This document shows positions 3,790 to 63,821 of a DNA stretch of 64,000 bases, in pieces (the stretch's first letter is position 1; every line of letters starts with the position of its first letter). The position numbers and the translations under genes were made by a program. The DNA is from Cyanidioschyzon merolae. Taxonomy: Eukaryota. The stretch lies in the NCBI GenBank assembly GCA_000091205.1, contig AP006491.2; one strand, written 5' to 3'. The notes beneath the pieces were generated by a model that did no database searches, had not been told where the DNA came from, and saw nothing but the letters and a program-made list of their open reading frames with translations.

Positions 3790-4007
3790 TACCCCGAGCT
3801 GGGCGCTTGGTATCAGTGCACGGTGTAGCATCCATCGACCGACGCCCAAGCCCCATAACCGATACTTCTGCTCGGATATACTGGTTGCTTTGTAGGTTCT
3901 ATCGTGCGCCAAGTGTGTGTCGTGAGCGTCCGCGGCAGCGCCCATAGCGCCGGTGCGGTCGCTGCACGGAGACAGAACATCGTTTCCGTACCACTGAGGG
4001 CGTCGGA
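3790..4007 (-). repeat. SINE-like dispersed repeat copy, head-proximal two thirds, no A-tail
   Basis: Segment-by-segment homology to 49430-49640: gtgcacggtg.agcatccatc ... ctcggatatactggttgctttgtaggttctatcgtgcgcc ... ccactgagggcgtcgga. Confidence 0.6.
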
Positions 4008-4309
4008 TCAAGGAATGCTACGCCTGACACGGACTCGGGGCTGGTTATCATTCTGGGAGCCTGCAAGCTACACATACAGAAATACTGCCTGGGGAAGCGC
4101 GAAAAATGATATGCTTGGAGTCCACTAGGAACAACGCGACGCCCAAACGCACACGAAACACCTCCAGTCCCAGAATGAAATGCCTTGCGTACGAGTTGCT
4201 CAGATCTCGCTGAAGCGTCCGTCGCTGGGCAAATCATGAAGCACAATCCTGGTAACTCGTCCGGCTCGCAGGAGCTTCCGCCTAGGAGATAAACTTTCGG
4301 CAATGCGGA

Positions 4310-6900
4310 AAGCTTTTCGACTTTTAAAGATAACCGTGGTGGCGGAAAGAAATCCTTTTCTCGTTATTACTAGGTGTCTAGTTTCTGTTCTTTTTTTCTA
4401 AAGTGCGCTCGATACGCGCACCTCTATATCTGGCAGGCATCAGACACGACGCGCATGCCGCCGTTGAAGGAAAACGCTATTCTGATCCTTCGCGTGTTGT
4501 TCTAAACTACAAGATGCATTTGCGTTAGAGCCCCAGCAAAGTATAGATTTTAGTTCTAGTGTGTTTCAACCCTAAGATTAACGTATGCAAGAGTTTTTCG
4601 CGGTTTATAACGGAAGCGTTCAAAATGCGTTCATTTTCAAAAATCAACATATACAGGAATTTTATGGGGATGCAGGTCGAGGACCCTGGGAGCACCGCTG
4701 TCGCCGACTGCCGGAAGAAAACCAAAACCAATGCCGAACCCAGAGGAACAAGACGACACCAAGGAGCAAAAGCGTGAGGCTCGGCGTCAGAAGCTGCGAG
4801 AAAGTCGACACTACCACGAGATAATTGTGAACGCATGTCTACTTGGACATACCAAGAATCCGTACAAGGAAAGGTTGCGGGACGCCATCAGAAACCGTAA
4901 CGAGTCGTACTCCAGGGGCATTATAAAGGCTTCGTCAGGGCTGATGCATTCGGTGGAGACGTATCGCGACGTGACGCACATCAAAACAGTCGAGGTTCCG
5001 GAGGAGGTTTTCGACAGGACCTTCATTAGGCACCTAATGCTTGGCAGAGAAGGAACCTCGATGAGAAATGAGCGAGTGCATGCCCTCCATGAAAACTGCG
5101 GCGAACAGCGCTTCAACGGTACTCGGTACGGCGAGAACTGGAAGATTTGCTGGTACGGGACGATGGAGTACCTCAGGAACCTGAAGAACCATTTGAACGT
5201 GAACCTCGGACGTTTCATGATACGCTCTATTTTTTTCGCTGTATCCGGGTCTCTCTCGCAAAGGGATATGGATCATCATCGATGGCATCTTTAACGATCG
5301 TAAGAATGAAGAGGAGATCGACTTTGGCGACTAGTAGACATCACGCTGGAGAAGGAATGCGGCTTCTGTAATCCGTACGGCTATTCAAGAGCACCGTGCG
5401 GTCTTGGCGCTGGCGAATCCAGTAGAAAAGATATCAGAGTTGAAAAAAGATGAAATGTACGTTATGCCCTCATCCTCCGCAATTTCGTGTTTTTGGACCG
5501 AGAACTCGAACGCAAAGCGGAGCTGAAGCTGAGTGAGTGGACAAATGACGAATCGGAGACACGGAAGGGTGCCCTAATGGGGAAGCGCTTCAACGTCGTT
5601 CCGTTGTGCAACATCAAGTCGCACTTTGTGAGTATCGACTCTGGCGTCCTTTACTGCATCAAGAAGGAGATCTGTCCGGAGTTCGATGTAAGGAAGATAG
5701 AGTTCACCGGCGAGAACCGGGAGACGTGCTGGAAGATCATCTTCGATTTCAAAAGTGTCAGATTGCGCAAGAAAACGGTATGCACTGGGATTATCGAAAG
5801 CGAATGGGTATGCATATGTGTTCACAACAGGCGCTTGAAGGTAAATCATCTTGTTCCGTCTTCGTTGGCGCCCTCGGCGAAGCGTGAAGAAAACAACGAG
5901 ACGCGCTCTGGAACACATGATCCGCAGGAGAGCGACTCTGTCGCTGGCGCGGACCCTGGGAATACGAACATCGTGACCATCGCTGCACCTTTTGTTGGGT
6001 AGATGGCAATGACCGCAACCTACGTCAGAAAGACATGCGTGTTCTAAAGTTCTCAGGAGCGAGGTACTATCGAGAATCGGGAATAATGAATGCGAGGAAG
6101 AAAACAGAGAAATGGAACGCAGAAGTGCAAGAGCACCTGGTAGCGATCAGCCAGGTGACGAAGCGCGGAGCGAACTTTCGAGCTTTTCTGGAGTTCATGA
6201 AAATTCTTGCTGCTGATGACGAGGCGCATTGGAAAGCGTATCCAAAAGCCCAGGTAAGCCCGTCAGCGTTTGAATCTGTACAGAGGGAAGCAGCGTACAT
6301 TCGTCACCTTTTCAATGAGTTGAGCGCCCTCAAAGAGCATGAAAGTCAAAGGCTCGTGGTGGCAAACTGAGCAGGGCGTCGGGTGCCCTGCCCAAAGGGT
6401 GTACACCAGCCCCGTCGACATGAGCGTACAACGAATGCGCACAGCGTTTTCACACCATACCGATGGATGAGTTCCGAGCATCCTATACACACCATGCATT
6501 GGGTTGTACGCTTCAGAGGGTCGATATGGAAAAGTGTCAGCGGAGCCCTGAGGGTGTAAAAAAGTCCGGAGCGCTGACGGTACAGCGAATGGAACCGAGG
6601 GCGCAAGTTCGAGGACTGCTTGCATTCGTAAGTACAAGCAATGATGGCAAGAAACGTATGCAGTTTGTGAACCAAGACTTTCATGCCGCTATCAATACCA
6701 GACGAGGAGTTTTCATGAACATGAGACCCGCAGCGCAGACAGAATCCAACTTTGTGGGGCCACCTCCCAAAGCTGCGTTCTACAAGGAGAAGCTGAAACC
6801 GACAGCGGACGGCGGGTCCATGAAAAACGCTACGAGCCGTCTGTTTGTGGGCGCACCAGTACACCGCACATAGGCGCGAGACATTTTTTGCTCTGCAGGT
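4310..6900 (+). mobile_element. Fanzor/TnpB-like RNA-guided nuclease element, copy 1. Decayed: the reading frame is split over 4 ORFs (4731-5294, 5487-6002, 6035-6370, 6463-6873) by a stop and frameshifts. Preceded by an AT-rich 5' block.
   Basis: K/R-rich N-terminus. RuvC-I-like [15 protein letters not shown] resembles GIDLGxxNxAT. The C-terminus has HHALGC..EKC followed by QDFHAAINT, the D.NAA.NI RuvC-III hallmark. Homologous to copies at 60100-62133 and 57125-57720. The frame breaks differ between copies, so they are lesions and not introns. Confidence 0.75.
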
Positions 6901-7111
6901 CACATATATTGGCGCTCATCAAACGTCGAGGCTGGATATCTACATCAAATTCGCAAAAAATACTCAAGACAGGAACAGAGCGAGCAGATGCATGTTCCAG
7001 TTTAGACAAAAGCGAAAGTAGGGTGCTGCGCGCTCGACCACTCGTCTACCGGTATACGAGTCCGAGGAACGAGCCTGCACCGGGGAAAGCTCGTGCCAAA
7101 ACAACGCACCC

Positions 7112-33752: not shown

Positions 33753-34264
33753 AGCGCCTTGTCGGTAACGCTACGTTCTTGTGTGAAAATAACCTCTCTC
33801 CTGGAAAACGCTGTACTCGTTGGAAAACCCGGGGTCTCGAGTCACAGACTCGACTGAAGGCCAAGAGACACACTGGCACAAAAAAACGTGTCTTCGTTAC
33901 GCCTGGTCACGTACACGACCGCAGCGGTTCAAGGCGCCCGTGCGAAATGATCCCAGCGGCGCTACACCCCGTAGCGTCCCTGATGCGACAGCAGCAACCA
34001 CAGAAACACACACCTTGGACTCAAGAGCTCACAATGAACAAGTACGCAGGTCGAAAGTCCACGATACCACAGTCTGGCAACGAGACAGCACACACAAGCG
34101 GCAGCGCGAACAAAACGCACACGCTGTCCCTAGAGCTCGGCAGCGCCGGTTACAATTTTTTTTAATTTCATAAAGCGTTGACGAAGGCCGGCATTTCCCG
34201 ATTGACTGCTGGGGCGCTTGATACCAGCGTGCGGAGCAGCATTCATGATTCCACGTCCGACTTC

Positions 34265-34425
34265 TAAGCTCCATAAGCCATACCGTGTCGTGGGTATACT
34301 GGTTGCTTCGTATATTCTATCGTTTGCTGAGTGCGTGTCCTGATCATCCGCGACACCGCCTATAGCGCCGGTGCGGGCGTAGCACGGCGACAAAACGGCG
34401 TTGCCGTACCTCGGAGGGCGTCTGC
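34265..34425 (-). repeat. SINE-like dispersed repeat, head-proximal fragment
   Basis: gtatactggttgcttcgtatattctatcgtttgctgagtg...cgcctatagcgccggtgcgggcg...ccgtacctcggagggcgtc aligns to 3860-4000 and to 50560-50700 (revcomp). Confidence 0.6.
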
Positions 34426-45059: not shown

Positions 45060-45450
45060 CTGCACGAACCGGAATGCCTCAAGAGTTTCTTGGTCTGCAG
45101 CCTCTACATTCACATTAGAGCAATACGGGTCAACGGTTTCTTACATAGTTCTGGGATTCTTGAACCCGGCAAGCTTCTAGAGTATCTTGGTCTGCAGCCT
45201 CTACATTCACATTAGAGCAATACGGGCCAACGGTTTCTTACATAGTTCTGGGATTCTTGAACCCGGCAAGCTTCTAGAGTTTCTTGGTCTGCAGCCTCTA
45301 CATTCACATTAGAGCAATACGGGCCAACGGTTTCTTACATAGTTCTGGGATTCTTGAACCCGGCAAGCTTCTAGAGTTTCTTGGTCTGCAGCCTCTACAT
45401 TCACATTAGAGCAATACGGGCCAACGGTTGCTTACATAGTTCTGGGATTC
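45060..45450. repeat. Tandem array, 97-bp unit x ~3.7, intergenic
   Basis: cttggtctgcagcctctacattcacattagagcaatacgggccaacggtttcttacatagttctgggattcttgaacccggcaagcttctagagtttc starts at 45089, 45186, 45283 and 45380, period 97. Confidence 0.9.
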
Positions 45451-47820
45451 TCAGCGGCGTTTCGAAATGACTTGTTAGGCTTTTTGCCGCAGCAACACGT
45501 TACGTCACTGCGTTCAAGATCATTCGCGAGACTCTCAAGCAGGCATTTGGTGTAATGACCGATATCGCCATCCAATTCCCGTATATAAGACTCCACTCTT
45601 CTTCTTTCCGTCTGCGCACCATGCTCAAATCACGCGTTTCTTTCAATTTTTCGATCTCTGTTTTTCAGGGAAACAGGCTGGAACAGCGATTCGCGGCGCT
45701 GGACTGATGAAGAAACATACCCGACCTTGTCCCTGGACGACCTGTCCACAAACTCATGCTGAAAGCGCACTGGACATGCCGCGCCGAATGATCGATTCCG
45801 TTTCAAGAGAAAGTCTTTCTCTATTTGTGGCTATCGACGATACAGTACTCGACAGCATCAGCACGGTACTTTACACGGGAACTGCTTCAAGAGGATCCCG
45901 GCTCTTCGGTTTCCATGGAAAAGCGTCTTTCTTGGGTTTGAGTCGTCGAAGCAATTGCTGTTTCGGGAGATTTTGTCACCGCTTGCACGACGGGAAGGCA
46001 GACGGATCGAGATTTATGGAGTTGTTCTCCATTATGGGCTTTCCATCCGGTATTTAATGCATCATGGACAACCTCGCGTTCAGCAAAATTCTTTCTCTAA
46101 TGGGACCGCATGCGCTGGCATGTGCAGTGGACACAGTACTCGACGCCGGACTCGCCTAGAAGACGCCCGTGAACATAGCATATGGCACTGGGCACAGAAA
46201 CGGAGGAGGGCATTTCTGGAAGCCTTCTGCCCGTGTCGATGGCCATCTATCGGGCGATCTAGCAAGCCTGTATGGACTGTAGAGCGGCGCTCCGGGCATG
46301 CGGTCTAGTCGACACATGAGAACCCCTAACCACGGTTACGTTTCATTGTTGCAACGGGCAAGCCGACGTTGTCCCCGAACAAGATGAATTTGGTCATCGA
46401 AGCGAAGCTCGCAGATTCTTCCCCTGCATGAAATGCATAGACACCAGCCGGAAGCGGTGAAATCTCAACAAGCACGCCGCGATCATTACCTATCGACCGC
46501 AGACAACGGAACTGCAATGAAACGAGAGACCTTCGTATTTAAAGCCAGAGAAATACGAGCGGAATCGCGGCCAACAGCACAAAAAAATCCGCAAAGGTCT
46601 GTGTTGATGACCAATGGAAGCGGTGTAGACTTTAGGGTGTACACTCGAGCTACAGGACGCGTTCCACTGCATCCTAATACGGTTGCAGTGCCGGCGACTC
46701 GGACCTCTACACCTGCACATCTTTCGCGAGAGTCGTCGGCCTCAAACCCGCAGAAAGGTTGGAACGAAACCGTTGAGTGTGCACGGTATATGCCGCAATG
46801 CATCTGGTTCCACAGCAAGTGTCTGCTATCGCCTCAACGCCTTTGAAGTCACCAGATCAGACACCCACTTTCGCAGCATCACACCGGTTGTGGACGAGAT
46901 AGATCCTGGAAGCGTCTGCGGAAGCAGTGAACACGACGCATCGGGAAGCGGCAGGGTTCGTACATTCGGACTAACCTGGGACGATCCACTGATTCTCTGG
47001 GTGATCCAGGACAGGTATCATCGAAAGTGAGGATACATGCACACGTGCTAGAACGCGGTGTTGCGTTGCGCTCTGGTACAGGACTGAAGCATGGAACCCG
47101 GGTTTGCTCTGAATGTGCAGTTGCTGCTGAGCGTCAGAGAGGAGATGCTGGCCACTTTACAAGCGCTTCTGCATACAGCAACTCTGCAGCAGTGCTTCTC
47201 TTGAGACTGGAAGCTGGATTGATCCAGCGAGCCGTCCGCTGCAGTGCCGGAGCTGCCGACGTTTCTGTATTCGTGGTTGAGGTTGCCGCTGATCAACGAC
47301 TTGTTGCCTTGGCACAGCTCGCGTACTGGCGATCGCTTCAACCGAGCAGGCGCTCAACACTGTACCCTGCATTTTGATCAAAAAACCTTGATACTGACTA
47401 GAGAGTCCCGATGACGATATCATTGTCGGTAACCGAGAAAACTTCCCGGGAAAGGCGACGCAGTCATTGCCTCGGACGCCGGTGCGCCGCGTTGTGTCAA
47501 GTGGGGTGACGTCCACGCGCGCACCACCGTGCAGCACGTGCGACTCGGGTCTGCGGTACTCATGTGGATGTCTGTGGTGGATGAACGCACGGGCAAAGCG
47601 ACCGAGTTGGGCAACGCGGAAACGCAAGCGTGGGATAGAGATGGAAATAGGTGACGGAGAGTGCGCGACGATAAGGACTCGTTGGCGTTGGCGTTGCCAC
47701 AGGGTTTCCAGCAACGTACCCAAGTATTCGAATGTGGATGATTAAGCATGCTTTTACCGATGACGCAGTGTTCTGTGTGTACCCTCACCAACCCATTACT
47801 CAAGATCTGAACGCATCCAT

Positions 47821-49334: not shown

Positions 49335-49640
49335 CGTTCGATTTTTTTCATAGACAAGACGTTTACTTGTGCCAGCTTTCTCCGATTATGCGCATTTATG
49401 TTTTCTTACCTCTTTTGTGTGTTATTTTTTGTGCGCGGTGAGGTATCCATCAAACGTCCTACCTCCAAGTTACATTACCTATACTGATTCTCGGATATTC
49501 TGGTCGTTTCATACGTTCTATCGGGTGCGCTTAGTACCTAACCTAATCATACGCCTTTGGAACTTAACCGCTGGAGCAGATAGTTCATAGAGTTAGGAGG
49601 GCTTTTCCATACCACAGAGGGCGTCGGTTCGAGGCGTGGT
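49335..49640 (-). repeat. SINE-like dispersed repeat, near full-length copy. The A-tail complement ttttttt is at 49336 and the head complement ..gagggcgtcggttcgagg is at ~49640. It lies immediately upstream of the aldolase gene.
   Basis: Reference copy for the family alignments. Reverse-complement homology to 15871-16170. Internal segments are shared with the 1-170, 3790-4007, 22095-22200, 34265-34425 and 50545-50720 copies. Confidence 0.65.
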
Positions 49641-50544
49641 TCACCCGACGTAGAACTGGGATTCGTCGTCAGTGTGTGCTCGGACAGTCTGCGGATGCAG
49701 GCTTGCCTTCGCTGCACGACACGCTGGAGAAACTTCACTGTTAGGATATATCGTGGGGGCCGCCTCTCTCCTTCGTGATCATGCATGGAATGCGTTGTTG
49801 TCGGTTGGCAATGCGGGTTTGTGCTCGACACTCATACAGAAGGTAGGCGCAGAAAGCGCACTAAACCCGTGTGCGCATCCGATTCGCTGGACCATCCGCC
49901 TAGAAGGTAGCATGTGAGTTTGTTCGCCACTAGTGAGCGCTGAGGCTCTGTTAGCGGACCATCAGTTGCCAGTGCTGCACTCAAAGTGAGTGTCCGGCCG
50001 TCGACTATCACGGTGATGCCCAGCTGCTGCTGTCCTTCAAGGAGATCGCTGCGCTCCTGCTTTCAGCGCGGCCACTGTAACAGTAAATATGTCAGCGTCT
50101 CGGGGATCTCGTCTCGACAGCAGGGACAGTGTGATTCCCAGTGCGATTCCAGTGCTCCTATCCGGCTTAGAGCCGGTGCTGCTAGTCAGAAACCACCAAC
50201 GTGGATTTTGGCGAGCCACTGGGTACCGCGAGCAAGTCCCGGGAATTCCAGCGCCTCCCACCAGTACTTGCATGTGTATGCTAGGTTGTAGTTCCGGTAT
50301 AGAGTCAAGCCGGCGTTACGGGCGCGACTGGTTCCGTGTCTACGTTCCCATATTGGTGTTCGGACCGTTCGCTTGAGGCGTCTGAAGTCTTCTACATTCC
50401 TGGGGAACGATTGGAGCGGACAGCCTGCTTCTGGGCGTCGCGCTGGTCCGAGTGGACTCCGAGTACGTCGCTTCGTGCTGCTGCAAGCATTAGGTCTGTC
50501 TGCGCAGCTTACTGGCTCCCAGCATGATTATGTAGTCCGAACCC

Positions 50545-50720
50545 GTATCCAATGAACCACAACTTGAGGCGACGCCCTCACTGGCATGGCAAAGCCGTTC
50601 TGTCTCCGTGCCGCATCTGCTCCAGGGGTGTAAGCGCGATTGCGAATGCTCAAGGAAGGTTACGTGCACAGTGGAATGCACGAAATAACCAGTACATCCG
50701 AAAGGAAGTACAAGTAATGG
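50545..50720 (+). repeat. SINE-like dispersed repeat, head-proximal fragment in sense orientation
   Basis: cttgaggcgacgccctcactggcatggcaaagccgttctgtctccgtgc... is the revcomp homolog of 3900-4007. The CTCAGTGGTA-like stretch resembles a Pol III box A. Confidence 0.55.
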
Positions 50721-51071
50721 AACCTGAAGGTAGGGTCCAGCAGCATGATGGGCGCTTTCCCGAATGTCAATACCGATCTATCGCGCAATCTGGCCTCCAT
50801 GGTCCATAGAAGCGCTTTGGCATCGGCGGGAGAACCGGGCGTCGCCCCGCGCTGCGCTCCATGGAACAATGCTCAAATCACGAATAAATTGTACTTTATT
50901 AAATCTGTATGTACTATGATGTACAAAATAGCATTCCAGGAATCCCGAGATCACACACGCGCTCGAGACGTGAACTGTCTCGTCACTCTCGGCTACGGCT
51001 TCATCTTCCTCGTATTTCTTCGCCATTAGATACGAGTGCGGTAAGATTCTGGGCTGAAGTTTTCAATATTA

Positions 51072-52995: not shown

Positions 52996-55950
52996 TCACC
53001 AGTCTGCATTTGGATAGAGAAGGCTGTCCCCTTGACTGATATCGCGATCCCTGTACGCGTCCACGGTCTCAAGCGGCTCCGAGTACGCATCCGAGGCGAC
53101 CGGATCAATGACGTCACTGTCGAGCGCGTCCGAGTCCGACAGCAGCGCCTCTGCCGCAGCCAGGCGTGATCGAGCGGGCGCTGCCGACGCACGTCTCGCA
53201 GCTCGCAGGGCTTGTCGCGGACTGGTGACCTCGACAACGGCGGCCGGATTCCCCGTCCGACGCATGGACTGGCGCTTCGCCGCGGCCGGCGACATCGGCC
53301 GCCGCATTGGTCGACTAACACCGCGGATGCCGCTGTGCACGTGAGGATTCCGTCGGCGTATCACGAACGGCCCATCCGCGGAAACAGCATCGATAGGCGC
53401 TGCAGCACGAGCGGCTGTCGGTTTTGGCTCGGCTGCGAGCTTTCCCGATGCCACAGACGCTGCAAGGTCAGCGCGTCCGCGATCGCCTGCCAGCTGTGCA
53501 TCATCTTCGGTCACCAGAACGGTATCCATAGCTTCCAACCGATGCACCAAAGAGCGCAGCTGCTGCTCTAACTCCAATAACGCGGATTTCGGAGGCTGCT
53601 CATAGGCATCGTGCTCCTCATCGGCGCTAGACGCGTTCATTTGCTCGGAATCGTCTTCGGCATCCGTCGCGACGGTGCCGGGTGGCGCAGCGCGCGCCCG
53701 CCGTGCGTGCAATCCGCCGCTCGCGCGTTGCCATGCGTGTCGCCGCTGCAGCGCCATCACGCGTCCGTGCGCCGCTGCCGCCTCCGTGTCATCGAGCGCC
53801 GTGCCGCGTGCTGCAACCGCTGATTCCGAGCGTAGCGCGCGACGTTGCCGCCGCTGGCGATCACGTGGCGGGAAATCGGGGACAGCACGCGACGCGCGCT
53901 GCTGCTGCTGCTGCTGCTGTCGATGACGCCGCTGGTGGCGGCCGATGCGTGCGCCGCTGCACGCATCATCGGCGGACACGTATGCTGCGGATGCATCCGA
54001 GTCGTCGTATCGCGATGCTGCTGAAGCATCGCTGTCGAGCGTTCGGGGCGCAATGAACAGCTTACGCCACCAGCGACCGAAGCGGACACCTACCTCCCAA
54101 AGGCTGTCGTTCAGGGCACGTCGGCGCCGCCGCTCACGACGGTGTCGCTCGGGAGCGCGGCGACTGCGAGCGCGTGAGCGCTCCTCATCGGAGCAGGCAT
54201 TGCGCGCCAGCGGATCGCGATAGCGCCCGGCGCCGTGGCGCACGCTCCCGGTATGGCGCGGGACGTTCTCCGCCAGCGCCGCCTCACGTCGAATGAGCTG
54301 ACGGAGTCGCATGACGCGCGCTATAAGCGCATCGCGATCTCGAGCCAGGGCTGAGCGCTCGCTATGGAGCTGGGCACGCTCCGCGCGTACCGAGTCACGC
54401 TCTTTCTCGATACCACTCAGTTTCTTGAGCAGCAGACGGTGTTCACGACGAGCCTCTTCGAGCTCGGCGCGTATCTGGGCGACATGCAGTGGCGTGCGTC
54501 CGTCGGCGCTCGCGTGCGAGGTATCGCGAGTGCGCGTCGCCGCCTCCTGCCGCGCCTCGTCCATGCGTTCAGGTTTGGCGTCGGCGGTGCGCCCAGGGTC
54601 GTGCGCTTCCTGCTGGACGCCGTTCGCTCCCGCTCCGGTATCGGATGCGGACAGCGGCGGTGGCGGCACCGTGCGCTCACCAGCTGCGGCATTCGATGCA
54701 TCCGGATTCGCTGGCGTCGAAACAGGCCGCCCAGTGTCGTCCGTGGAGAGCGCTGCCGCCGGTGCCGCTGCTGCCACTGCCTCCGTTCCAAGACGCTGCA
54801 GCTCAGGTGCAGCGTTTCCAGCGGCCAGCGCCGGTGCCGGACGTGCCACGCTCGGTGCGCGCGGCGGTGGACCAGCGGGCGATTCTGTCGATGCTGCGGC
54901 TCTGAGTTCCCCGGGCCGCATCGGTGCAGCAGATGCGGTCTGCAGTGCAGTGCCACCAAGCTCATTGTCCGTGGCGAATGCTTGGAATTTTCGGATGAAC
55001 GTGGTGCCAGCAGGAAGCGGCTGCTCTTCTGTCACTCGATCTCTGGCTGCATCCTGAGTTGGACCCGGATTCACTGGCGGTTTGCGCACGCTCGGTCGCG
55101 GGCCAGGCTCGGGTCCCGTCGACGCTTCAATCGTTTGAAAACGTCGACGGAACATCTCTTCGCCCTTGCCTCCGCCGAAAACTGCGCCAGCACCCGCATC
55201 ATTCAGTACCGGTGCCGTACTGGCGGCAGTCTCGACCGCGGCACTCGTCGTTGACGGCGGTCTGTCGTCGGTGCCGGGCGGCCAACGAGCACGCGCACCG
55301 CGCTGCGCCTGCCCGGGGAGCGGTCGTACAGCCGCCGGGGGCGCTCGTGAGCGCTCCCGCTGCGATACGGTGCTGAGCTCGTTCGCAGGCTCGGCTTCGG
55401 TAGGCGCTATACCGAGTTTCTGGTTATGGCGCTCGACTGCACGTTTCCACCTCTGCATCGGGTTGAGATTCTCCTGCTCGAAGGAGTCGTCGGCTTTGCC
55501 GATATTCGTCGCAGTTGCTGCAGCGAGAACTTCCGCTGTAGGTCGTATAACGGATATATTCCCCGCATTAAAAGGACGTAAAGGAGCTGCATTCGGTGCC
55601 CCTGTTGACGCTTCAGATCTGCCAGCGGCGAGCGCCGGTTTGCGAAACACCGATGGCGCACCTGCAGCTGTACCCAGCCGGCTCGTAGGGACGCTTTTCC
55701 CACTAGTCGTGTTCGTCCCATCCCCTTTTGGTGCCGGGGGTTTATTGGCTATGTTCGATGTAGAGAGTGTGCTGTATATCGGTCTCATCCTGTGAGCGAA
55801 GTAAAAGAGAGACGGTGAGAACGCCAAAGCACAACCGGGATCGGTTTGAAAATTTGAATCGGAGGGAAAACGCTGCGGACACCTGCATGCCGATCGATCG
55901 CGCACGCGCGCACCCGTCCGGCGCACGGTGTCGCCGCTGGCAGCGGACAT
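52996..55950 (-). CDS. Hypothetical large (984 aa) Ala/Pro/Arg/Ser-rich, mostly disordered protein with a central coiled-coil. A polyQ tract is encoded by (CAG)n.
   Basis: By far the longest ORF across 53-56 kb. Coiled-coil AELEEARREHRLLLKKLSGIEKERDSVRAERAQLHSERSALARDRDAL. The repeat (GCT)n at 53898-53919 encodes QQQQQQQ. Several overlapping opposite-strand ORFs are typical GC-rich artefacts. Confidence 0.4.
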   Translation of the reverse strand: MSAASGDTVRRTGARVRDRSACRCPQRFPSDSNFQTDPGCALAFSPSLFYFAHRMRPIYSTLSTSNIANKPPAPKGDGTNTTSGKSVPTSRLGTAAGAPSVFRKPALAAGRSEASTGAPNAAPLRPFNAGNISVIRPTAEVLAAATATNIGKADDSFEQENLNPMQRWKRAVERHNQKLGIAPTEAEPANELSTVSQRERSRAPPAAVRPLPGQAQRGARARWPPGTDDRPPSTTSAAVETAASTAPVLNDAGAGAVFGGGKGEEMFRRRFQTIEASTGPEPGPRPSVRKPPVNPGPTQDAARDRVTEEQPLPAGTTFIRKFQAFATDNELGGTALQTASAAPMRPGELRAAASTESPAGPPPRAPSVARPAPALAAGNAAPELQRLGTEAVAAAAPAAALSTDDTGRPVSTPANPDASNAAAGERTVPPPPLSASDTGAGANGVQQEAHDPGRTADAKPERMDEARQEAATRTRDTSHASADGRTPLHVAQIRAELEEARREHRLLLKKLSGIEKERDSVRAERAQLHSERSALARDRDALIARVMRLRQLIRREAALAENVPRHTGSVRHGAGRYRDPLARNACSDEERSRARSRRAPERHRRERRRRRALNDSLWEVGVRFGRWWRKLFIAPRTLDSDASAASRYDDSDASAAYVSADDACSGARIGRHQRRHRQQQQQQQRASRAVPDFPPRDRQRRQRRALRSESAVAARGTALDDTEAAAAHGRVMALQRRHAWQRASGGLHARRARAAPPGTVATDAEDDSEQMNASSADEEHDAYEQPPKSALLELEQQLRSLVHRLEAMDTVLVTEDDAQLAGDRGRADLAASVASGKLAAEPKPTAARAAAPIDAVSADGPFVIRRRNPHVHSGIRGVSRPMRRPMSPAAAKRQSMRRTGNPAAVVEVTSPRQALRAARRASAAPARSRLAAAEALLSDSDALDSDVIDPVASDAYSEPLETVDAYRDRDISQGDSLLYPNADW

Positions 55951-56181: not shown

Positions 56182-56880
56182 CTAGGGCTCCATTGGTGCG
56201 CCCGCATCAGGTAGAATGCGATGACGCACGAGCGCTCTGTAATGCTCGGGACGAAAGCGTCTAATGTACTCCGCTAATTTTCCCCGCACGATTGTCTCTG
56301 TCGATGCAATGCCTATCTCATCCGCGAATGACTGAATCAGCGTTTTCGCTGACGCAACGGCCTCCTGCATGATTGGACTGGTTCCGCTAAGCAATCGATC
56401 GTTATCGCGATATAGAACCAGTACTTCAATTTCGCCAACGGTGTAACCGTAATCCGTCCGATCCAGATCGATGTTCAAGGTCTGCCCGCGATAAACGACT
56501 TGTAAAGTTTCGCGCTCTGTCACGATCCGGGCAAACGGTGCTATGCGGCCTTCCCGAAGAGCCGTGTCCGGGCTCCACCCGAGCGCAGCCTCCACGTCTG
56601 CGAACTCGTCCAACTCTCGGTAAGTGTCCAGCGTAGCTGTGCGTGGCGTTTTTCCCCAAGGTATTTTGAGCTGCCACTGCAGCTCACGTTGCCGTAGCCA
56701 CCAGTCGCGCAGTGTTAGCGCCCAGGCATCTGGTACGTCAAAATAGGTATCCGTAAAGCAGGCAGTACGCAGCCGACGTTTCTCTGACACGATCGACGTC
56801 GACTCGAGCCTCTCCAGCAACCGTTGGGTCAGTTCTGGAGACAGCACAAACTTGCGCTCTACTTCAATGCTAGCCGTCAT
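56182..56880 (-). CDS. CYTH-domain protein (thiamine-triphosphatase/CyaB-like triphosphate tunnel metalloenzyme). The ORF extends upstream to 57111.
   Basis: MTASIEVERKFVLSP carries the ExExK hallmark. Downstream acidic/basic tunnel residues are present. ~230 aa from the Met at 56880. Confidence 0.75.
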   Translation of the reverse strand: MTASIEVERKFVLSPELTQRLLERLESTSIVSEKRRLRTACFTDTYFDVPDAWALTLRDWWLRQRELQWQLKIPWGKTPRTATLDTYRELDEFADVEAALGWSPDTALREGRIAPFARIVTERETLQVVYRGQTLNIDLDRTDYGYTVGEIEVLVLYRDNDRLLSGTSPIMQEAVASAKTLIQSFADEIGIASTETIVRGKLAEYIRRFRPEHYRALVRHRILPDAGAPMEP

Positions 56881-57124
56881 GGAGCAGGCGAGCGGACCAA
56901 CTCCAACCGGCCTGCGCAGTTTCGCGTACCCCCAGCAGACACTTCGGAAACGCCCGACAAACAGCCGCTCCTGGCGTCCCGGGTGCGAAACGCCTCGCGC
57001 ACACAGACGCGTTCGTGCTGCACACCCGTGTCGACTTGAGCTCGCGGGCGCAACGAAGCCAGCCAGACTCGGTCTCGAATCAGCAAAGAGGTACCCCTCG
57101 CCAAACGCCATTCTTAAGTCGAAC

Positions 57125-57720
57125 GACGCCAGCGGTGTACAGTAGTGGCGACCGGGCCGCCCTAGAAGAAATGTCTCCGACTGATGTGCAGAAGCCTGCC
57201 CGTCTTTTTGGACCGGCCACCTACTACTGCTTCAAACTTTTTCTCATATAGTTTAACTTTGAGCGGTTTTCCAACCAAATTCTCTATCGTCGACCCGAGA
57301 GGTCTTTCCTCTCTCACCGCACATTTCCTTATATTGATTGCGGCGTTAAAGTCTCGGTTCACAAACTCCATACGTTTCTTGCCATTGATTGTACTTACTA
57401 ACGCAAGCAATCCTCGAACTTTCGCTATCCTTTCCATTTGCTCTTCTGTCAGCGGTCCGTACTTTTTTTATATCCTCAGGTCCCCGCTGGCACTTTTCCA
57501 TCTCGACCCTCTGAAGTGTACAGCCCAGTTCATGGTGTGTATACAATGCTCGAAATCCATCTACCGGTATTATAACAAAACGCCGTGCGCACTCCTTATA
57601 CGTTCTCGTCGTGGGATCTGGTGTACACCCTTGTTGGGTCGTCCAGCGCCTTGCTTCGTACGCTACTACGAGCCTTTGACTTTCATCCTCCTTCAAGGCA
57701 CTCAACTCACTGAAAAAAAA
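57125..57720 (-). mobile_element. Fanzor/TnpB-like element, copy 3. This is a 3' fragment: the C-terminal RuvC-III region plus the conserved 3' non-coding tail. It is inserted between divergent CYTH and SulP genes.
   Basis: ORFs 57346-57705(-) and 57162-57437(-) encode ...YTHHELGCTLQRVEMEKCQRGPEDIKK and ..KKRMEFVNRDFNAAINIRKCAV. The tail ..ccactactgtacaccgctggcg matches the copy-2 tail. Confidence 0.7.
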
Positions 57721-59904
57721 ATGCGAATGCCCGATACTCCCTACATTATAGATTCATGCGGAGATCAAACTGCCCGCCATCCGAGATTGCATGTACGGAT
57801 CTCAGCGCTCGCGTCGGAAGCATCGGCAGTGGACGAGCGCCTTGTTGTGCACTGCCTGTCCACTGGACACGCAAGGTACTTTCGTCGGAACATGGGCGTT
57901 GAGAATGCTTTAGGCGGTTTCATAGTAACGAATACCTTCAGCGGTAGCGGTGTACGTTTCGTCGTACGGAACCGGAGCCAGTGCAACTCGCTGGTGGTGC
58001 CTGGGTTCCGCGCGAGGCGGCGTACGCGCTGCGGAGCACTTGCTCGCGTACGGGGGACAGATTCGGCGCCAGAGGGTACCCCCGACGCCGAAGCGAGGCA
58101 CCGTCCCAAGCCTGGTGAGCGAGGGCTCTTCCCGCTCGTTGCACCGCGTGAGGATATCGGGCGCTATTTCGTTGGAGAGCGTCGGATTTTGGACGAACGC
58201 ACAGCGCGCTATCCGCTACGCTCGACGGTAGAGGAAGTGCTGGCGGGCATTACGGTGGCGATGGCGCTGCTGCCTGCGGCGGTGTCTTGCGCGTTGGCCA
58301 CGGGCGTGCCGCCGCTCGCTGGAATCGTCTCGACTGGTCTCCTGTGTGCGATAACTGCCGCACTGGGAGGACGCCCTGGCATGATCTCAGGAACATCTGC
58401 AGCGCTCATTATTCTGCAAGCGCCTCTCTATCAACAGTACGGCGCAGCAGCGGTCGCTGCCGCCGTGGTGCTCAGCGGTATACTCCAGCTTTTCTTCGGG
58501 ATCTATCGTTTGGGAAAGTTTGTGCGGCTGATATCGTACCCTACCTTTCTGGGATTCATCAGCGGCATCGCCATCTTGACGGCGACAAGTCAGGTCTATG
58601 CGTTTCAGCTTCCAGCGGGAACCGGGCTGAGCCCGGGCGCACCCTGGCTCCAGGGTAACATGTTGCGTGCAGCGTTGATCGTCGCAGCGCTCGCCGCTGG
58701 AGTCGCCCATGTATGGCCCTTGATCATTCAGCGACTACAGCGCCGGCGCCCCGATAGTACCCATCGGTGGCAGCACCGCCTCGCTGAGCTGTTGCGTTGG
58801 CTCCCAAGCCCACTAGCGGGCATCCTCGTGGCATCCATTTATGCGGAGGTGACGCAAGCGCCTGTGCGGCGGCTTGGCGACTTTTTGCGCGACACGCTGG
58901 CACAGTCAGGGGCCATTGGCGTATCCTGGGCAGCCCTGCCGTCAACACCGCTGGCATGGATGGCCATTCTGAGCACCGCGCTTGGTCTCGCATTCATCGG
59001 TCTTTTGGAATCTCTGTTAACCATGACTTTGGTAGACGAAGTCACGGAATCGAGGGGTAGCACGCGTCGGGAGTGTCTAGCGCTTGGGGCAGGGAATATC
59101 GCCGCGGGCTTATTCGGTGGCGTGGGCGGCTGCGGCCTCCTGGGCCAGTCGCTCCTGAACACGAAATCAGGGGGACGCGGGCGTCTCTCTGGACTGACTG
59201 CGGCGCTGTGTCTTCTCGTGTTGGCGAGAAATCCGAGCGGACTGATGATTCGGATTCCCGTCCCAGCCATTGCAAGCCTTATGGTGCTGGTGGCGCTGGG
59301 CTCGTTCGAATGGGCATCGCTGCGCTTGTTTCGTGCCATACCTCTCGCTGATTCGCTGACCATTGTGAGCGTTGCCCTGATGACTGTAGCAACGCGCAAC
59401 GTCGCCCTGGCGGTCCTGTTTGGTGTGGTATTCTCGGCGCTGGTCTTTGCCTATAAAGCGTCGCGACGCATTACCGCCCAGAGCTTTATTTCGGAGGACG
59501 AGCAAACGCGCGGATGGCGGGGATACCGGATTGACGGTCCGCTGTTCTTTGGCACGGCGGAGCGCTTCAGTCGTCTGTTCGACCCAGCACGGGATCGTGC
59601 CGAAGGCCATGAGCACGTGATCATCGACTTCTCTGGTAGCCGCATCTGGGACGCGACAGCGCTAGAGGCGCTAGACTCCCTAGCCCGTCAGTATAGGAGC
59701 TATGGTATTCGGCTGCATCTGTGGGGTCTGTCTCGAGATAGCGCACGTCTGCTGCGCGAGGCACGCGCCTACATCGACGAGAGTGTCACGAACGAGAAAG
59801 CGCTCTACTTGTACGAGCGGGTTGTAGCCGACTATCCCACAAACGATAGTCTAGAGGTTGAGTACGAGCTTTTCGCGAAAAGAGAATCGGGGAATGCAGC
59901 GTAA
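57721..59904 (+). CDS. SulP-family sulfate/anion transporter with C-terminal STAS domain. The start is taken at the Met at 57721 (alternative 57886). The longer ORF from 57184 overlaps the Fanzor fragment and is rejected.
   Basis: Sulfate_transp-like N-terminus LAGITVAMALLPAAVSCALATGVPPLAGIVSTGLL. Multiple TM helices. The STAS domain is HVIIDFSGSRIWDATALEALDSLARQYRSYGIRLHLWGL. Confidence 0.88.
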   Translation: MRMPDTPYIIDSCGDQTARHPRLHVRISALASEASAVDERLVVHCLSTGHARYFRRNMGVENALGGFIVTNTFSGSGVRFVVRNRSQCNSLVVPGFRARRRTRCGALARVRGTDSAPEGTPDAEARHRPKPGERGLFPLVAPREDIGRYFVGERRILDERTARYPLRSTVEEVLAGITVAMALLPAAVSCALATGVPPLAGIVSTGLLCAITAALGGRPGMISGTSAALIILQAPLYQQYGAAAVAAAVVLSGILQLFFGIYRLGKFVRLISYPTFLGFISGIAILTATSQVYAFQLPAGTGLSPGAPWLQGNMLRAALIVAALAAGVAHVWPLIIQRLQRRRPDSTHRWQHRLAELLRWLPSPLAGILVASIYAEVTQAPVRRLGDFLRDTLAQSGAIGVSWAALPSTPLAWMAILSTALGLAFIGLLESLLTMTLVDEVTESRGSTRRECLALGAGNIAAGLFGGVGGCGLLGQSLLNTKSGGRGRLSGLTAALCLLVLARNPSGLMIRIPVPAIASLMVLVALGSFEWASLRLFRAIPLADSLTIVSVALMTVATRNVALAVLFGVVFSALVFAYKASRRITAQSFISEDEQTRGWRGYRIDGPLFFGTAERFSRLFDPARDRAEGHEHVIIDFSGSRIWDATALEALDSLARQYRSYGIRLHLWGLSRDSARLLREARAYIDESVTNEKALYLYERVVADYPTNDSLEVEYELFAKRESGNAA

Positions 59905-60099
59905 AGACAACGGGCATCGCTAGAGGGCATCGCAGAGGAGCAACGGACCCCCGCAGGGCGCGAGCGGGTCGTGCGCTCGCTCCTGTATCATTTTCGGTGC
60001 CGTTTGGTTACATCCGCTTACGCAGATCGATAAGTCGAAACAGACAGCGGTGATTGCCAAGCATCGCGTCGTTCCTGTGCGCCCGAACGGAGATGTTGT

Positions 60100-62133
60100 C
60101 AGCGTTCCGCTCCGCAACGTTCCATCCATTGCACCGAAGTGCGCCCCGTCGACAACACATTCCAGCGTGGGATCAGGCGCACGAAGTTTCCCTGGCACAG
60201 CAGCAGTGACGGACATCAAAACAGTCGAGGTTTCGGAAGCGTTTTCGACAGGACCTTGATTTGTCGCCTGATGCTTGGCACAGGGGAAACGCGGAGGGGA
60301 AATGAGCGGGTTCATGCCCTCCACGAGAATCACGCCGAGTACCGCCCTGAGGGTACTCGATTCAGGGGTGATTCGGATCTTTAAACCTACGGGACGATCA
60401 AGTACCATACGGACCTGAAGAACCATTTGACGATGAACCTCGAACGCTTCATGAAACGCTCCGTCTATGCACTCTACCCGGGCATCGCTCGCAAAGGAAT
60501 ATGGGCGATTATCAATGGCATCACGAAGGATTGCCAGAATGAACAGGAGATCGAATTCTTCGACAAGAAGACATCACGCAGGAGAAAGAATGAAGCTCCT
60601 GTAATCCATTGGGTTATACAAGAGCATCGTGCCGTACTGGGGCTGGCGAACCCAACAGAAAAGTTATCAGAGATGAAAAAAAGATAAGAAAAGATACGAT
60701 CGCCTCATCCTGCGCTATTTCGTGTTCCTGGACCAAGGACTGGAACGCGAGGCATAGATGAAGCTGAGTGAGGAGAAAAATGATGCGTCGGAGAAACGAA
60801 AGGCTTTCCTAATGGGGAAGCACCCTAACGTCGTTCCGTTGAACAACATCGAGTCACACTGTGTGACTATCGACTCCAGAGTCCTTCAAGGCATCATGAA
60901 GGAGATCAGTCCCGAGTTCGATGTTAGCAGGGAGGAGTTCTCCGGTGAAAATCGGGAGATGTACGGGAAGAACATCTTCGATGTCAATCGTCTCAAAGTG
61001 AGCAAATAAAAGGTATTCGCTGGGATGATCGAAACCGATGGAGTAGCCATGTGTGTACAGTATCGGAGGTTGAAGGTGGATCGTCCCATCGCGCCTTGGG
61101 CTTCGCCCGTGACGAAGCATGAAGATAAGATGGAGATGGGCCCTGAAACGTGTAATCCCCAGGATAACGACCTTGTCGTTGGCGCGGACCCCGGGAACAC
61201 GAATATCGTAACCATCGCAGTACCCAAGCGTGCGGAAGATGGCATTGACGGTAACTTGCCTCAGAAAGACATGCGTCTGTTGAGATTCTCGAGAGCGAGA
61301 TACCATCGAGAATCGGGAATCATGAATGCAAGCAAGAAAATCGAGACGTAGAATGCAGGAATGAAAGAGCACCTGGAAGCTATGACCAAGTTGACTAGCC
61401 GAGGAGCGGACTCGGAAGCTTTTCGGAAATTCATGGAAGTTCGTGTTGCTCACTGGAAGGCGCTGTGGAAAGAGTATACAAAGTCCCGGTAGGCTTGTCT
61501 GCGTATGAGTCTATTCCGTGGGATGCAGCGGGCGTTCGCAAACTTTTTCAATGGGTTGAGCGCCTTGAAGGAGGACGCAAGTCAGAGGCTCCTGGTAGCA
61601 CACGGAGCAGGGCGCTGGAAGACCCGAAAAGGATGTACACCAGCTCCAACGACAAGAACGTACATGGAGTGCGCAAGGCGTTTCGTTACGATACCGGTAG
61701 ATGAGTTTCGAGCGTCCTATACGTACCATGAACTGGGGTGTACGCTCCAGAGAGTCGAGATAGAAGAGTGCCAGCGGAGCCCTGAAGATATAAAAAAGTA
61801 CGGACGGCTGGCGGAAGAGCAAATGGAAAGGAGGGCGAATGTTCGAGGACTACTTGCATCAGTAAGAACAACCAATGGCAAGAAACGTATGGATTTTGTG
61901 AACCGAGACTTTAACGCAGCCGTCAATATAAGGAGATGTGCGGTGATGGAAAGAAGACCTCCAGGATGAACAAGAGTGAACTTTGTTGGACAATCATCTA
62001 AAGTGGAACTATATGAGAAAAAGTTGAAACGAGTAGTAGGTGGCCGGTCGAAAAACCTGGGAGGCGTCTGCACATCAGTTGGGGACGTCTTGTCTAGGGC
62101 GGGTTTCCCGCCACTACTGTGCACCGCTGGCGG
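60100..62133 (+). mobile_element. Fanzor/TnpB-like element, copy 2. It is decayed, with in-frame stops and frameshifts across ORFs 60139-60384, 60427-60687, 60758-61009, 61025-61351 and 61505-61969. Its conserved 3' tail ends ~90 bp before the RCC1 gene start.
   Basis: [15 protein letters not shown] (RuvC-I-like). YTYHELGCTLQRVEIEECQRSPED. MDFVNRDFNAAVNIRRCAV (RuvC-III). ~75-80% nucleotide identity to copy 1 over ~2 kb. Confidence 0.75.
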
Positions 62134-62222
62134 CAGCGTTTTTCTTTGAAAGGCGTGCGGTGTGCGCAGCATATCGACATAGTTCGTTATCGTGCACCAT
62201 AGTCTCTGTTCACTGCACCGGC

Positions 62223-63821
62223 ATGGTACACCCAAACGCTGGCGCGCAGGGCGCCGAGCTCCTGTTCTGTGGCTCCTGCAAATGGGACACACAGGGGCGC
62301 GACCGCAAAGGCGCCATCGAGTACGGGGAAGAGGTACTAGCGCCACATCGTCTCACGGGCTCGGTCACACTGGGAGGTCTCACGACACCAGCTGACCGAG
62401 CACAGATGCTGCGGATCGTTAGCGGACCGGTGGCAGCGCACGCCGTGCTCATTTTAACTGACGGACGTGCGCTGGCAATAGGGCGAAACACGCACGGTGA
62501 GCTCGGTATAGGTACAGCGCGGCGCTTTGCTCCAGTGTTTATGCCTGTCGTCTTCATCAAGGGCGGGCGCTGCACCGGCGCCGCCTGTGGTCGCACACAC
62601 ACGCTCTTCCTCATGGACGACGGCGTGGTGTACGCGACCGGGGCGAACGATGCAGGTCAGCTTGGTGTCGGTGCGCGGGGCATCAGCGCCAGCGGGGCCA
62701 ATGTACCGGCAGCTGTGACCCCGATCCGCCTGACGTACCTCGCAGAACATATGGGCGTGCGAGCAGCCCAGGTAGGATGTGGAGAACAGTTCTCCGTCGT
62801 GCTCGCTGATGACGGCTCGCTCTACACTTTTGGAACACATCGGGACGGTGTCCTGGGACTGGGCACCACCGGCGAAGTCATTGGCAAACAACGCATGGAG
62901 GTGGAGAGCGAACCCCTGCCGCGACGGGTCACGCGCTTCGTGCGCTCGGACGGCATCGTCGTTGCTCTCGATGAGTCCAAAAGCATGGACGAACAAAGCG
63001 AGGATATACCCCGCTTCACACAGGTAGTTTGTGGTCAGCGGCATGTGGTTGCTCTAGACTCCCGCCACCGCGTCTGGTCGTGGGGATTCGGTGGTTATGG
63101 TCGTTTAGGTCATCGAACGCCGAACGATGAGCTGCGTCCCCGATGCATGGAGTTTTTCGAGCGTTTGCGCGACGACCGCCGGCGATGTGTCAAGCTATAC
63201 GCTGGCGCCTCCTGCTGCTATGCGCTGACCGAAATGGGCACCGTGTACTTTTGGGGCATCACAAAAATGACCGGTGAAGCGACGACATCGCCGCAGATGC
63301 TCTACGATTTGCACGGCTGGAAAATTCGAGATATCGCCGTGGGCATCTCATCGACGATGATCGCTTGTGAGGAGTGCACGACGATCGCCTGGGGTCCGTC
63401 ACCCGCCTACGGCGAGATGGGTTTCGGTGAGACCGTCGTTGGAAGGAGTTTTGCAGGCAGGACAGGCGTACTCAAAAGCAGTACCCAACCACGGATTGTC
63501 GATCCGCTGAAAGGCGTCCAAGTGAGTCAGCTTGCGATGGGGGCTTTTTTCACGTTCCTCCTGCTTCGACCCGAGGAGGTGCAAGCGTCAGACGACCAAG
63601 GCACGAAGGTGCAAGCACTCCCGACGCTCTCGTGGGATGCGCATGCCAATATCGGCGCGCAGCCTGTACGCGGTTTGACGATCCTCGACGCAAGCTCGTT
63701 GGGGTCCCGGCGCGGTCGGAAACCCGGCAAGGTCGCTGCTCGAGCGACCAGCAGCGCGACTAAAACCCGCGTAACCTCAGTGTCCGCGGTCGTTGTTCCG
63801 GAAAAGAGGCGCCGCACCTAG
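62223..63821 (+). CDS. RCC1-repeat (RLD) protein. The ORF extends upstream to 62040.
   Basis: Repeated beta-propeller blade motifs GELGIGT, GQLGVGA, GVLGLGTTG, GRLGHRT and GEMGFGE at ~50-aa spacing. Confidence 0.8.
   Translation: MVHPNAGAQGAELLFCGSCKWDTQGRDRKGAIEYGEEVLAPHRLTGSVTLGGLTTPADRAQMLRIVSGPVAAHAVLILTDGRALAIGRNTHGELGIGTARRFAPVFMPVVFIKGGRCTGAACGRTHTLFLMDDGVVYATGANDAGQLGVGARGISASGANVPAAVTPIRLTYLAEHMGVRAAQVGCGEQFSVVLADDGSLYTFGTHRDGVLGLGTTGEVIGKQRMEVESEPLPRRVTRFVRSDGIVVALDESKSMDEQSEDIPRFTQVVCGQRHVVALDSRHRVWSWGFGGYGRLGHRTPNDELRPRCMEFFERLRDDRRRCVKLYAGASCCYALTEMGTVYFWGITKMTGEATTSPQMLYDLHGWKIRDIAVGISSTMIACEECTTIAWGPSPAYGEMGFGETVVGRSFAGRTGVLKSSTQPRIVDPLKGVQVSQLAMGAFFTFLLLRPEEVQASDDQGTKVQALPTLSWDAHANIGAQPVRGLTILDASSLGSRRGRKPGKVAARATSSATKTRVTSVSAVVVPEKRRRT

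Follow-up and report, generated by a model that had tools for sequence, protein, structure and literature searches.

The question raised by this locus is what lies between two divergent genes of Cyanidioschyzon merolae, one encoding a CYTH protein (minus strand) and one encoding a sulfate permease of the SulP type (plus strand), where these genes begin and how they came to be neighbours. A sequence-only reading of the window (the whole stretch of 64,000 nucleotides that was analysed, from contig AP006491.2 of assembly GCA_000091205.1) had placed a Fanzor/TnpB fragment here. Exact look-up of the proteins encoded from 57892, 57111 (minus strand) and 62223 gave BAM79957.1, BAM79956.1 and BAM79958.1 and assigned the window to strain 10D (chromosome record of 810,151 bp). 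We find that positions 57106-57764 on the minus strand are a dead tail remnant of CMe-1A, an element encoding a Fanzor1 protein, that this remnant forms one arm of a block around SulP, and that translation most likely starts at 57892 for SulP and at 56880 for CYTH, a combined reading that we consider well supported and hold with good, though not full, confidence.

The element family is already known and, apart from having misled the prediction of gene starts on either side, this dead copy is ordinary. Around 150 copies of CMe-1A have been described in C. merolae, each about 80% identical to a 3169-bp consensus (Bao & Jurka 2013, PMC3627910). The element encodes a Fanzor1 protein of 734 amino acids, is devoid of terminal inverted repeats and detectable target-site duplications, and its transposition mechanism is not known (PMC3627910). 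The consensus DNA and protein were taken from the supplementary files of the same paper, which covers neither this locus nor the inverted arms around SulP, and the window was mapped to both. The following copies are needed for the argument:

3838..6772, plus strand: copy A, a CMe-1A element covering consensus nucleotides 83-3015 at 80.3% identity
57106..57764, minus strand: the remnant (fragment F), the 5'-truncated 3' end of a CMe-1A element covering consensus nucleotides 2507-3169, and the left arm of an inverted repeat
60206..62155, plus strand: copy B, a 5'-truncated and frameshifted CMe-1A element covering consensus nucleotides 1215-3169 at 86.8% identity

The earlier assignment to the 3' end of a Fanzor/TnpB-family element was borne out by the match to the published consensus, in which nucleotides 2507-3145 correspond to 57764-57127 with 84.6% identity over 641 bp (BLAST, E 0). 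The alignment continues weakly through the terminal 24 nucleotides to the last consensus base (3169) at 57106, so that the remnant covers approximately amino acids 535-734 of the Fanzor1 protein and the 62-nucleotide 3' end. The limits 57125-57720 given before had to be revised to 57106-57764 on the basis of this mapping, and two ATG codons, at 57721 and 57727, fall within the 44 bp at the inner end of the remnant (57721-57764). The outer end was set by the last consensus base and by the point where the match to a paralogous contig (L005) stops. The natural 3' terminus of CMe-1A reads ...GAAAGGCG and the remnant ends in ...GAATGGCG at 57113-57106, which is also the end point of the paralogous arm and of three other copies. 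The 3' tail that had been noticed is indeed present, but it is mostly coding, as the stop codon of the consensus reading frame lies 62 nucleotides before the element end.

Within the window the remnant behaves as a repeat, with a match of 81% to copy B (61498-62132, plus strand; 638 bp, E 5e-172), one of 79% to copy A (6309-6697, plus strand) and two smaller relatives at 34590-34785 and 39104-39155. Its identity to the consensus fits the value of about 80% reported for the roughly 150 copies, the 3' terminus is shared with CMe-1A, and neither has terminal inverted repeats or target-site duplications. It differs from the full element in that only the last fifth of the 3169 bp is left, in frameshifted form. 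The coding potential that it retains is distributed as follows:

57346..57705, minus strand: piece of the remnant reading frame with ..VDGFRALYTHHELGCTLQRVEMEKC.., for which the family consensus is VDEFRTSYTHHELGC; the Glu and the Thr-Ser are lost
57162..57437, minus strand: piece of the remnant reading frame, in a different frame, with the RuvC-III motif FVNRDFNAAINI
57463..57469, no strand: A/T run with one base more than in the CMe-1A consensus, an insertion that frameshifts the Fanzor reading frame

Both peptides quoted in the sequence-only reading are encoded on the minus strand, ..YTHHELGCTLQRVEMEKCQRGPEDIKK.. in the open reading frame 57346-57705 and ..RMEFVNRDFNAAINIRKCAV.. in that of 57162-57437. 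The RD motif of RuvC-III (NRDxNAAxNI, here NRDFNAAINI, in the latter frame) is the sole surviving motif. The segment with the RuvC-I aspartate (around amino acid 430 of the consensus) is absent from the remnant, which begins at about amino acid 535, and the (V)DE(F)xTS motif has changed from VDEFRTS in the consensus to VDGFRAL, i.e. the Glu has become Gly. No intact reading frame is left, given the 5' truncation, the +1 frameshift at 57463-57469 and the location of the motif pieces in different frames. Judged from its sequence the remnant is dead and non-functional and cannot be a nuclease, because it is 5'-truncated and frameshifted and lacks the catalytic residues of RuvC-I and RuvC-II. The description of the fragment as a 'ZnF/RuvC-III end' holds for the RuvC-III motif; as to the zinc finger, no canonical C4 ribbon is evident in either the remnant or the consensus, both of which have, between the TS and RD motifs, the arrangement HH..C...C (THHELGC..EKC) with no second CxxC.

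Membership of the Fanzor1 group could be supported independently of PMC3627910 at the level of the family. A Pfam search of the two reading frames of the remnant and of the antisense extension discussed below gave no match, and the reading frame of copy B and the 734-residue consensus showed only sub-threshold similarity to PF07282 (E 0.26-0.5), over the NRD motif. Searching the PDB sequences (phmmer) with the latter two as single sequences yielded nothing relevant. A profile made from nine CMe-1 homologues gave a single match in the PDB, SpuFz1, the Fanzor1 of Spizellomyces punctatus and an RNA-guided DNA endonuclease (8GKH, E 3.5e-5), with the DPG (RuvC-I), DE-TS and NRD (RuvC-III) motifs aligned. 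The likeness extends from upstream of RuvC-I through the NRD motif of RuvC-III and is remote, in that single CMe-1 sequences give no match; the homology to a characterised Fanzor1 thus holds for the CMe-1 family profile and not for the remnant alone. SpuFz1 has a zinc ribbon of the CxxC...CxxC type where the CMe-1 consensus has none (its CPRC and CTNPNC align to non-Cys residues in the profile alignment), and the remnant differs from it in addition by the absence of RuvC-I and of the Glu.

The position of the remnant has direct consequences for the start of SulP, the upstream region of which is composed as follows:

57184..57720, plus strand: spurious 5' extension of the SulP reading frame, antisense through the remnant
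57712..57729, plus strand: A-run that ranges from A7 to A9 and may have an extra T, then ATG 57721 and ATG 57727; transposon-derived
57765..57891, plus strand: 127 bp before the SulP start that do not derive from the transposon
57892..59904, plus strand: SulP sulfate permease coding sequence, 670 amino acids, identical to BAM79957.1 / XP_005536243.1

The reference protein (annotated as 'probable sulfate permease', start at 57892) contains the Pfam domains Sulfate_transp (PF00916, E 4e-38) and STAS (PF01740, E 6e-13). That the reading frame of 906 codons from 57184 runs antisense through the remnant was confirmed, and the suspicion that it is spurious proved right: the reference has 670 residues, and the 906-residue form was encountered only as a MetaClust/UniParc entry. 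The sense strand of CMe-1 is purine-rich (A+G 59%) and stop-poor antisense frames are therefore a compositional by-product; the consensus already contains antisense stretches that are open over 116 and 197 codons. In the remnant these are joined by the +1 insertion at 57463-57469, which produces the 179-codon extension on the plus strand. The A-run before 57721 consists of A7, A8, A9 or A9+T in the five closely related sequences compared, and since its length varies among related strains the upstream frame of 179 codons is not conserved.

The Met at 57721, formerly taken to be the real start, did not hold up. This ATG is located inside the remnant and is a TTG in two of the four related-strain contigs (L004 and L006), and exact protein look-up found no 727-residue form of SulP in the databases searched. 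The SulP orthologue of Cyanidiococcus (675 amino acids) begins level with Met 57892, with a GF-containing N-terminus common to both proteins, and nothing upstream of this Met aligns to it. Position 57892 is the best-supported start, and SulP translation most likely begins there. The 127 bp between this codon and the remnant probably represent a 5' UTR or proximal promoter that was carried along with SulP.

Exaptation of a transposon-derived N-terminal extension, with translation of SulP from 57727 (or 57721), would be compatible with the finding that ATG 57727 and the frame 57727-57892 are intact in all five sequences compared and with the annotation of the 10D paralogue BAM79879.1 (725 amino acids) from the equivalent of 57727. 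However, the orthologues of Cyanidiococcus and Cyanidium have nothing that corresponds to the 55 extra residues, and the two 10D paralogues differ at 4 of these 55 positions versus 6 of the 670 in the rest of the protein. Among strains and paralogues, the region 57727-57891 shows a divergence of 1.6-3.1% versus 0.5-0.7% for the coding sequence, i.e. it changes 3-4 times faster, and the changes in that frame are 3-4 non-synonymous to 0-1 synonymous (small counts), while in the SulP coding sequence synonymous changes are at least as numerous as non-synonymous ones. Also the GC3 of the extension (0.54) is lower than that of the coding sequence (0.62-0.65). We consider such an extension quite improbable and retain the start at 57892.

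On the other side of the remnant the annotation of CYTH is affected in a similar way:

56182..56880, minus strand: CYTH / thiamine-triphosphatase-like coding sequence, 232 amino acids, from the orthologue-supported start
56881..57111, minus strand: 77-codon N-terminal extension of BAM79956.1 (309 amino acids), not conserved in the four closest orthologues

The protein BAM79956.1 is annotated as 'similar to thiamine triphosphatase' with a start at 57111 (minus strand); it has the CYTH domain (PF01928, E 1.4e-8 in Pfam) and the characteristic N-terminal motif (I/L)E(V/I)E(R/K)KF. Its annotated ATG (57111-57109) falls within the last 6 nucleotides of the remnant, where GAAAGG in the consensus has become GAATGG. 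Of the five orthologues in the comparison, four begin with the Met that aligns to 56880 (MxxxIEVERKF), and the remaining one (P0151, eukprot) carries an N-terminal extension of its own that does not match. Going by this comparison, CYTH translation most likely starts at 56880.

One dead remnant thus accounts for three conflicting gene models in a reference genome, SulP with 906 and 725/727 versus 670 amino acids and CYTH with 309 versus 232: each of the longer forms owes a start codon or an open frame to the remnant. It also follows that the remnant fills the entire spacer, as had been stated, only when the ends of the naive reading frames are considered. With the orthologue-supported starts of CYTH (56880) and SulP (57892) the spacer is 1011 bp long, 659 bp of which are occupied by the remnant.

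The neighbourhood of the remnant is equally informative with respect to its history. Together with copy B it encloses SulP in a larger structure, next to which the RCC1-like gene is found:

57106..62155, no strand: 5.05-kb block of left arm, SulP and copy B, absent from the CYTH-RCC1 spacer of Cyanidiococcus
62223..63821, plus strand: RCC1-like gene (BAM79958.1, 532 amino acids), the ancestral divergent neighbour of CYTH

The 3' part of copy B (61498-62155) constitutes the right arm of an inverted repeat of about 0.66 kb that brackets SulP (arms at 57127-57717 and 61544-62132, 78-84% complementary), and in both arms the natural 3' terminus of CMe-1A faces outward. The interval between the arms is made up of the 127 bp of non-transposon DNA, the SulP gene, a further stretch of about 0.3 kb and the 5' part of copy B. 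The block ends 225 bp from the CYTH start at 56880, and the outer end of copy B is 67 bp away from the start of RCC1.

In Cyanidiococcus yangmingshanensis, a member of the sister genus, catalase is followed by an 895-residue gene, CYTH, RCC1, ribosomal L24, a 507-residue gene and RLI. This corresponds gene for gene to the order in the window and its extension (L010), except that CYTH and RCC1 are direct neighbours, divergently oriented and separated by a spacer of 1069 bp. The SulP gene of Cyanidiococcus has UQ_con, EF1A and RPL13 as neighbours on a different contig, and CMe-1A sequence is absent at both of these loci. Comparison with the orthologous locus of a relative, which had been suggested before, indeed uncovered an insertion-free site, though one flanked by CYTH and RCC1 and not by CYTH and SulP. 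The SulP locus of Cyanidiococcus was also considered as an empty site and rejected, because UQ_con and not CYTH lies upstream and synteny is not conserved. Gene order alone defines the empty site, the intergenic DNA being unalignable between the two genera: DNA alignment of the Cyanidiococcus CYTH-RCC1 spacer with the flanks in the window gave matches at the coding edges only. None of four metagenome contigs resembling C. merolae showed an empty CYTH-RCC1 site. A metagenome contig of 9.9 kb spans CYTH, the remnant, SulP, copy B and RCC1 at 99.2% identity, and since the same order occurs in the wild the arrangement is not an artefact of the 10D assembly.

The adjacency of CYTH and RCC1 in Cyanidiococcus, with SulP located elsewhere, indicates that SulP and the remnant are both part of one inserted block. 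The sequence-only reading had envisaged a lone Fanzor fragment that inserted into a pre-existing promoter shared by CYTH and SulP, with SulP starting at 57721. The remnant does sit between the two genes and the long reading frame is spurious, as that reading had it. Nevertheless, the ancestral neighbours are RCC1 for CYTH and UQ_con for SulP, so a shared divergent CYTH/SulP promoter finds no counterpart in the outgroup; the same junction of remnant and SulP occurs at a paralogous locus beside a different upstream gene; and the ATG at 57721 belongs to the remnant, is TTG in two related contigs and matches no database protein. A lone insertion is very unlikely for these reasons, and arrival of SulP and the remnant in one block is the reading that we follow.

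The second locus provides further information on this block. The 10D paralogue of SulP, BAM79879.1, is located on another chromosome record (739,753 bp), and the context of the paralogous locus is known from metagenome contigs only. On contig L005 the order is a POT1-like gene (minus strand), an antisense CMe-1A 3' arm, SulP and CMe-1A, and in the right part of contig L004 a CMe-1A 3' arm is followed by UQ_con and further on by EF1A. The UQ_con/EF1A region is the ancestral neighbourhood of SulP, and at the second locus SulP is inverted relative to UQ_con. The join of CYTH to UQ_con on contig L004 is a probable chimeric path through a 3.8-kb repeat: the same sample also yields a contig with the 3' part of copy B and RCC1 that breaks at the repeat edge, and another metagenome spans the region from CYTH to RCC1 intact.

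Comparison of the two loci showed that a core of 3.8 kb (approximately 57655 to 61450) is 98-100% identical. The arms outside it reach only about 80%, as is typical for CMe-1A copies that are unrelated. This difference (arms ~80%, core ~99%) excludes that the whole block was duplicated in a single recent event. We also considered that the left arms are sister copies, as they have 13 derived sites in common, and rejected this, since an unrelated intact copy (L016) shares 8. The sites shared by the two left arms are markers of a 3'-end subfamily; those exclusive to this pair number 5, without excess over other pairs, and an unrelated copy from the same subfamily is as similar to the arms as these are to one another between the two loci.

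With arms that have diverged and a core that is near-identical, recombination or gene conversion must be involved. SulP probably reached the CYTH-RCC1 spacer by a transposon-associated event, for which two courses can be envisaged: an old duplication of the whole block in the active period of the family, followed by gene conversion or homogenisation of the core, or a more recent ectopic conversion that would have been anchored in pre-existing CMe-1A copies.

Whether the 5.05-kb block is or was itself a mobile unit, a composite or foldback-like transposon that carried SulP to a new chromosome, can be judged from its edges. Both of these are natural CMe-1A 3' termini at both loci, the arms are inverted, both loci combine the same subfamilies (type 2 for the left end, type 1 for the right end), and the outgroup lacks the block in its orthologous spacer. 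On the other hand, no target-site duplication was found: the flanks (...CTCGCCAAA before the remnant and TGCGGTGTG after copy B) contain no direct repeat, and the same holds for the second locus. Moreover, CMe-1A has neither terminal inverted repeats nor a known mechanism of transposition (PMC3627910), only two copies of the block are known, and the contrast between arms and core rules out a single recent transposition, so that later conversion would be needed. On balance a mobile block is conceivable but doubtful. The more specific scenario in which the 5.05-kb unit was mobilised whole while the family was active, the core having become near-identical via later gene conversion, we regard as unlikely.

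The arrangement resembles composite transposons and transposon-flanked segmental duplications in that a host gene is bracketed by two inverted element copies, occurs at two loci and is missing from the orthologous site in the outgroup. It is unlike them in the absence of a target-site duplication, in having arms that consist of 3' ends only, and in the divergence of the arms (around 20%) next to a core that is near-identical between the loci. The transposon-associated arrival of SulP in the CYTH-RCC1 spacer, by either of the two courses given above, remains our preferred description.

A role for the remnant in the present genome was also considered, either as an orphan omega-RNA scaffold (a guide into the CYTH upstream region) or as a promoter or silencer of CYTH and SulP. 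In characterised systems it is reportedly the 3' end of the element that encodes the omega-RNA of a Fanzor protein, and the remnant has kept the full 3' end with its natural terminus. But an Rfam search gave no match, a consensus fold of 3' ends (based on five independent ones only) received no supporting covariation, the covariation term being unfavourable, and with 84.6% identity to the consensus the remnant is as diverged as other dead copies. As to silencing, about half of the C. merolae repeats carry the repressive mark H3K27me3, but the genes marked in this way are not near repeats (PMC5405695). We consider a function of this kind very unlikely and continue to regard the remnant as dead. 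A contribution of the arms to the promoters of SulP and RCC1 is possible, because only 127 bp and 67 bp of non-transposon DNA, respectively, precede these genes.

SulP and its upstream region are a recent arrival between CYTH and RCC1. For work on sulfate transport or on promoters in C. merolae it is relevant that the two SulP genes are near-identical copies within blocks bounded by CMe-1A. If the block were mobile, it would offer a rare clue to the movement of, and DNA capture by, elements that encode only a Fanzor1. It would mean that a Fanzor1-only element without a known transposase has placed a duplicate of a host transporter gene on a second chromosome, in a eukaryotic genome that is among the most streamlined. 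The SulP block with inverted arms at two loci is the only feature found here that might repay further work.

A final observation concerns the family as a whole. 'WSV repeats', which resemble a truncated open reading frame of white spot syndrome virus and account for about 5% of the genome of C. merolae, are mentioned in a passage of PMC5405695 that cites Nozaki et al. 2007, and white spot syndrome virus carries a Fanzor1 (PMC3627910). The 'WSV repeats' and CMe-1A are very probably the same family.

The strand antisense to the Fanzor1 ORF of the CMe-1A repeat family is poor in stop codons; in the consensus its open stretches run to 100-200 codons. This scarcity of stops apparently reflects the purine content of the sense strand, which is 59%. 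Sizeable spurious ORFs are therefore found at every CMe-1A copy (57184-57720(+), 61717-62346(-) and 6346-6903(-)), and several such antisense ORFs have been called as genes in metagenome annotations.

The annotation of the CYTH gene is probably affected as well. In the reference model (BAM79956.1, 309 aa) the ATG falls within the final 6 nt of the transposon remnant, and in four of the five orthologues compared the start corresponds to position 56880, 77 codons downstream of the annotated ATG. The N-terminal extension (56881-57111(-)) is probably an annotation artefact. At the other end of the block, only 67 bp (62156-62222) separate the outer end of copy B, the larger degenerate CMe-1A copy, from the start codon of the RCC1-like gene, so that the promoter of this gene in C. 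merolae would be either very compact or partly transposon-derived; the CYTH-RCC1 spacer in the sister genus Cyanidiococcus measures 1069 bp.

CYTH is adjoined by a low-complexity ORF of 984 aa, rich in Ala, Arg and Pro (52996-55950, minus strand). A tblastn match of 46.8% identity was found at the syntenic position in Cyanidiococcus, where a gene of 895 aa has been called. No Pfam domain is on record for that gene or for the C. merolae-like counterpart on the metagenome contig L004.

Other CMe-1A sequences in the window were the following.

3838-6772, plus strand: copy A, nearly full-length (consensus nt 83-3015, 80.3%), frameshifted and without the final ~150 bp
206-247, 15870-16049, 21987-22154, 34257-34430, 49458-49649 and 50413-50825: short matches to the consensus, all within its 5' ~400 bp
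34512-34785 and 38737-38926: one piece from the 3' part and one from the interior of the element

The 5' ~400 bp were equated by Bao & Jurka with a separate element, TE-N2_CMe (PMC3627910). The repeat content of the window is unusually high for the C. merolae genome. A tandem array (97-bp unit, 3.8 copies, 98% identical) is present at 45082-45451.

Outside the Cyanidiophyceae, the closest relatives of SulP (57892-59904) were proteins of ~520 aa (37-41% identity), which, where the source gives a name, are SulP family or BicA transporters of Gammaproteobacteria (Alteromonadales and similar), and none of the hits was a closer eukaryotic relative. The SulP gene may thus be of bacterial origin.

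Two SulP loci are linked on L004 (ENA ERZ27247228 k141_638959; 33.6 kb), one through its CYTH side and the other through its UQ_con side. This contig is most likely an assembly chimera formed through the 3.8-kb near-identical core, or it may represent a real recombinant strain. A 39-bp insertion/deletion difference between strain 10D and L004 lies within copy B (61375-61413), just inside the point where the near-identity of the two SulP loci ends.

Five CMe-1A 3' ends were compared.

62100-62155 and 57106-57160: window
5212-5270: metagenome contig L005
10170-10230: L004
12380-12421: metagenome contig L016

Two forms of the terminus were observed: ...GGCAGCGTTTTTCTTTTGAAAGGCG, in the consensus and both right arms of the inverted repeats around SulP, and ...G(TC)GTTCGACTT(T/A)(C/A)GAA(A/T/C)GGC(G/A), in the two left arms as well as in one intact copy. 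A potential hairpin, GCCGCCA(N14)TGGCGGC, is conserved just upstream of the terminus; Helitron and IS200/605-type ends typically carry subterminal hairpins.
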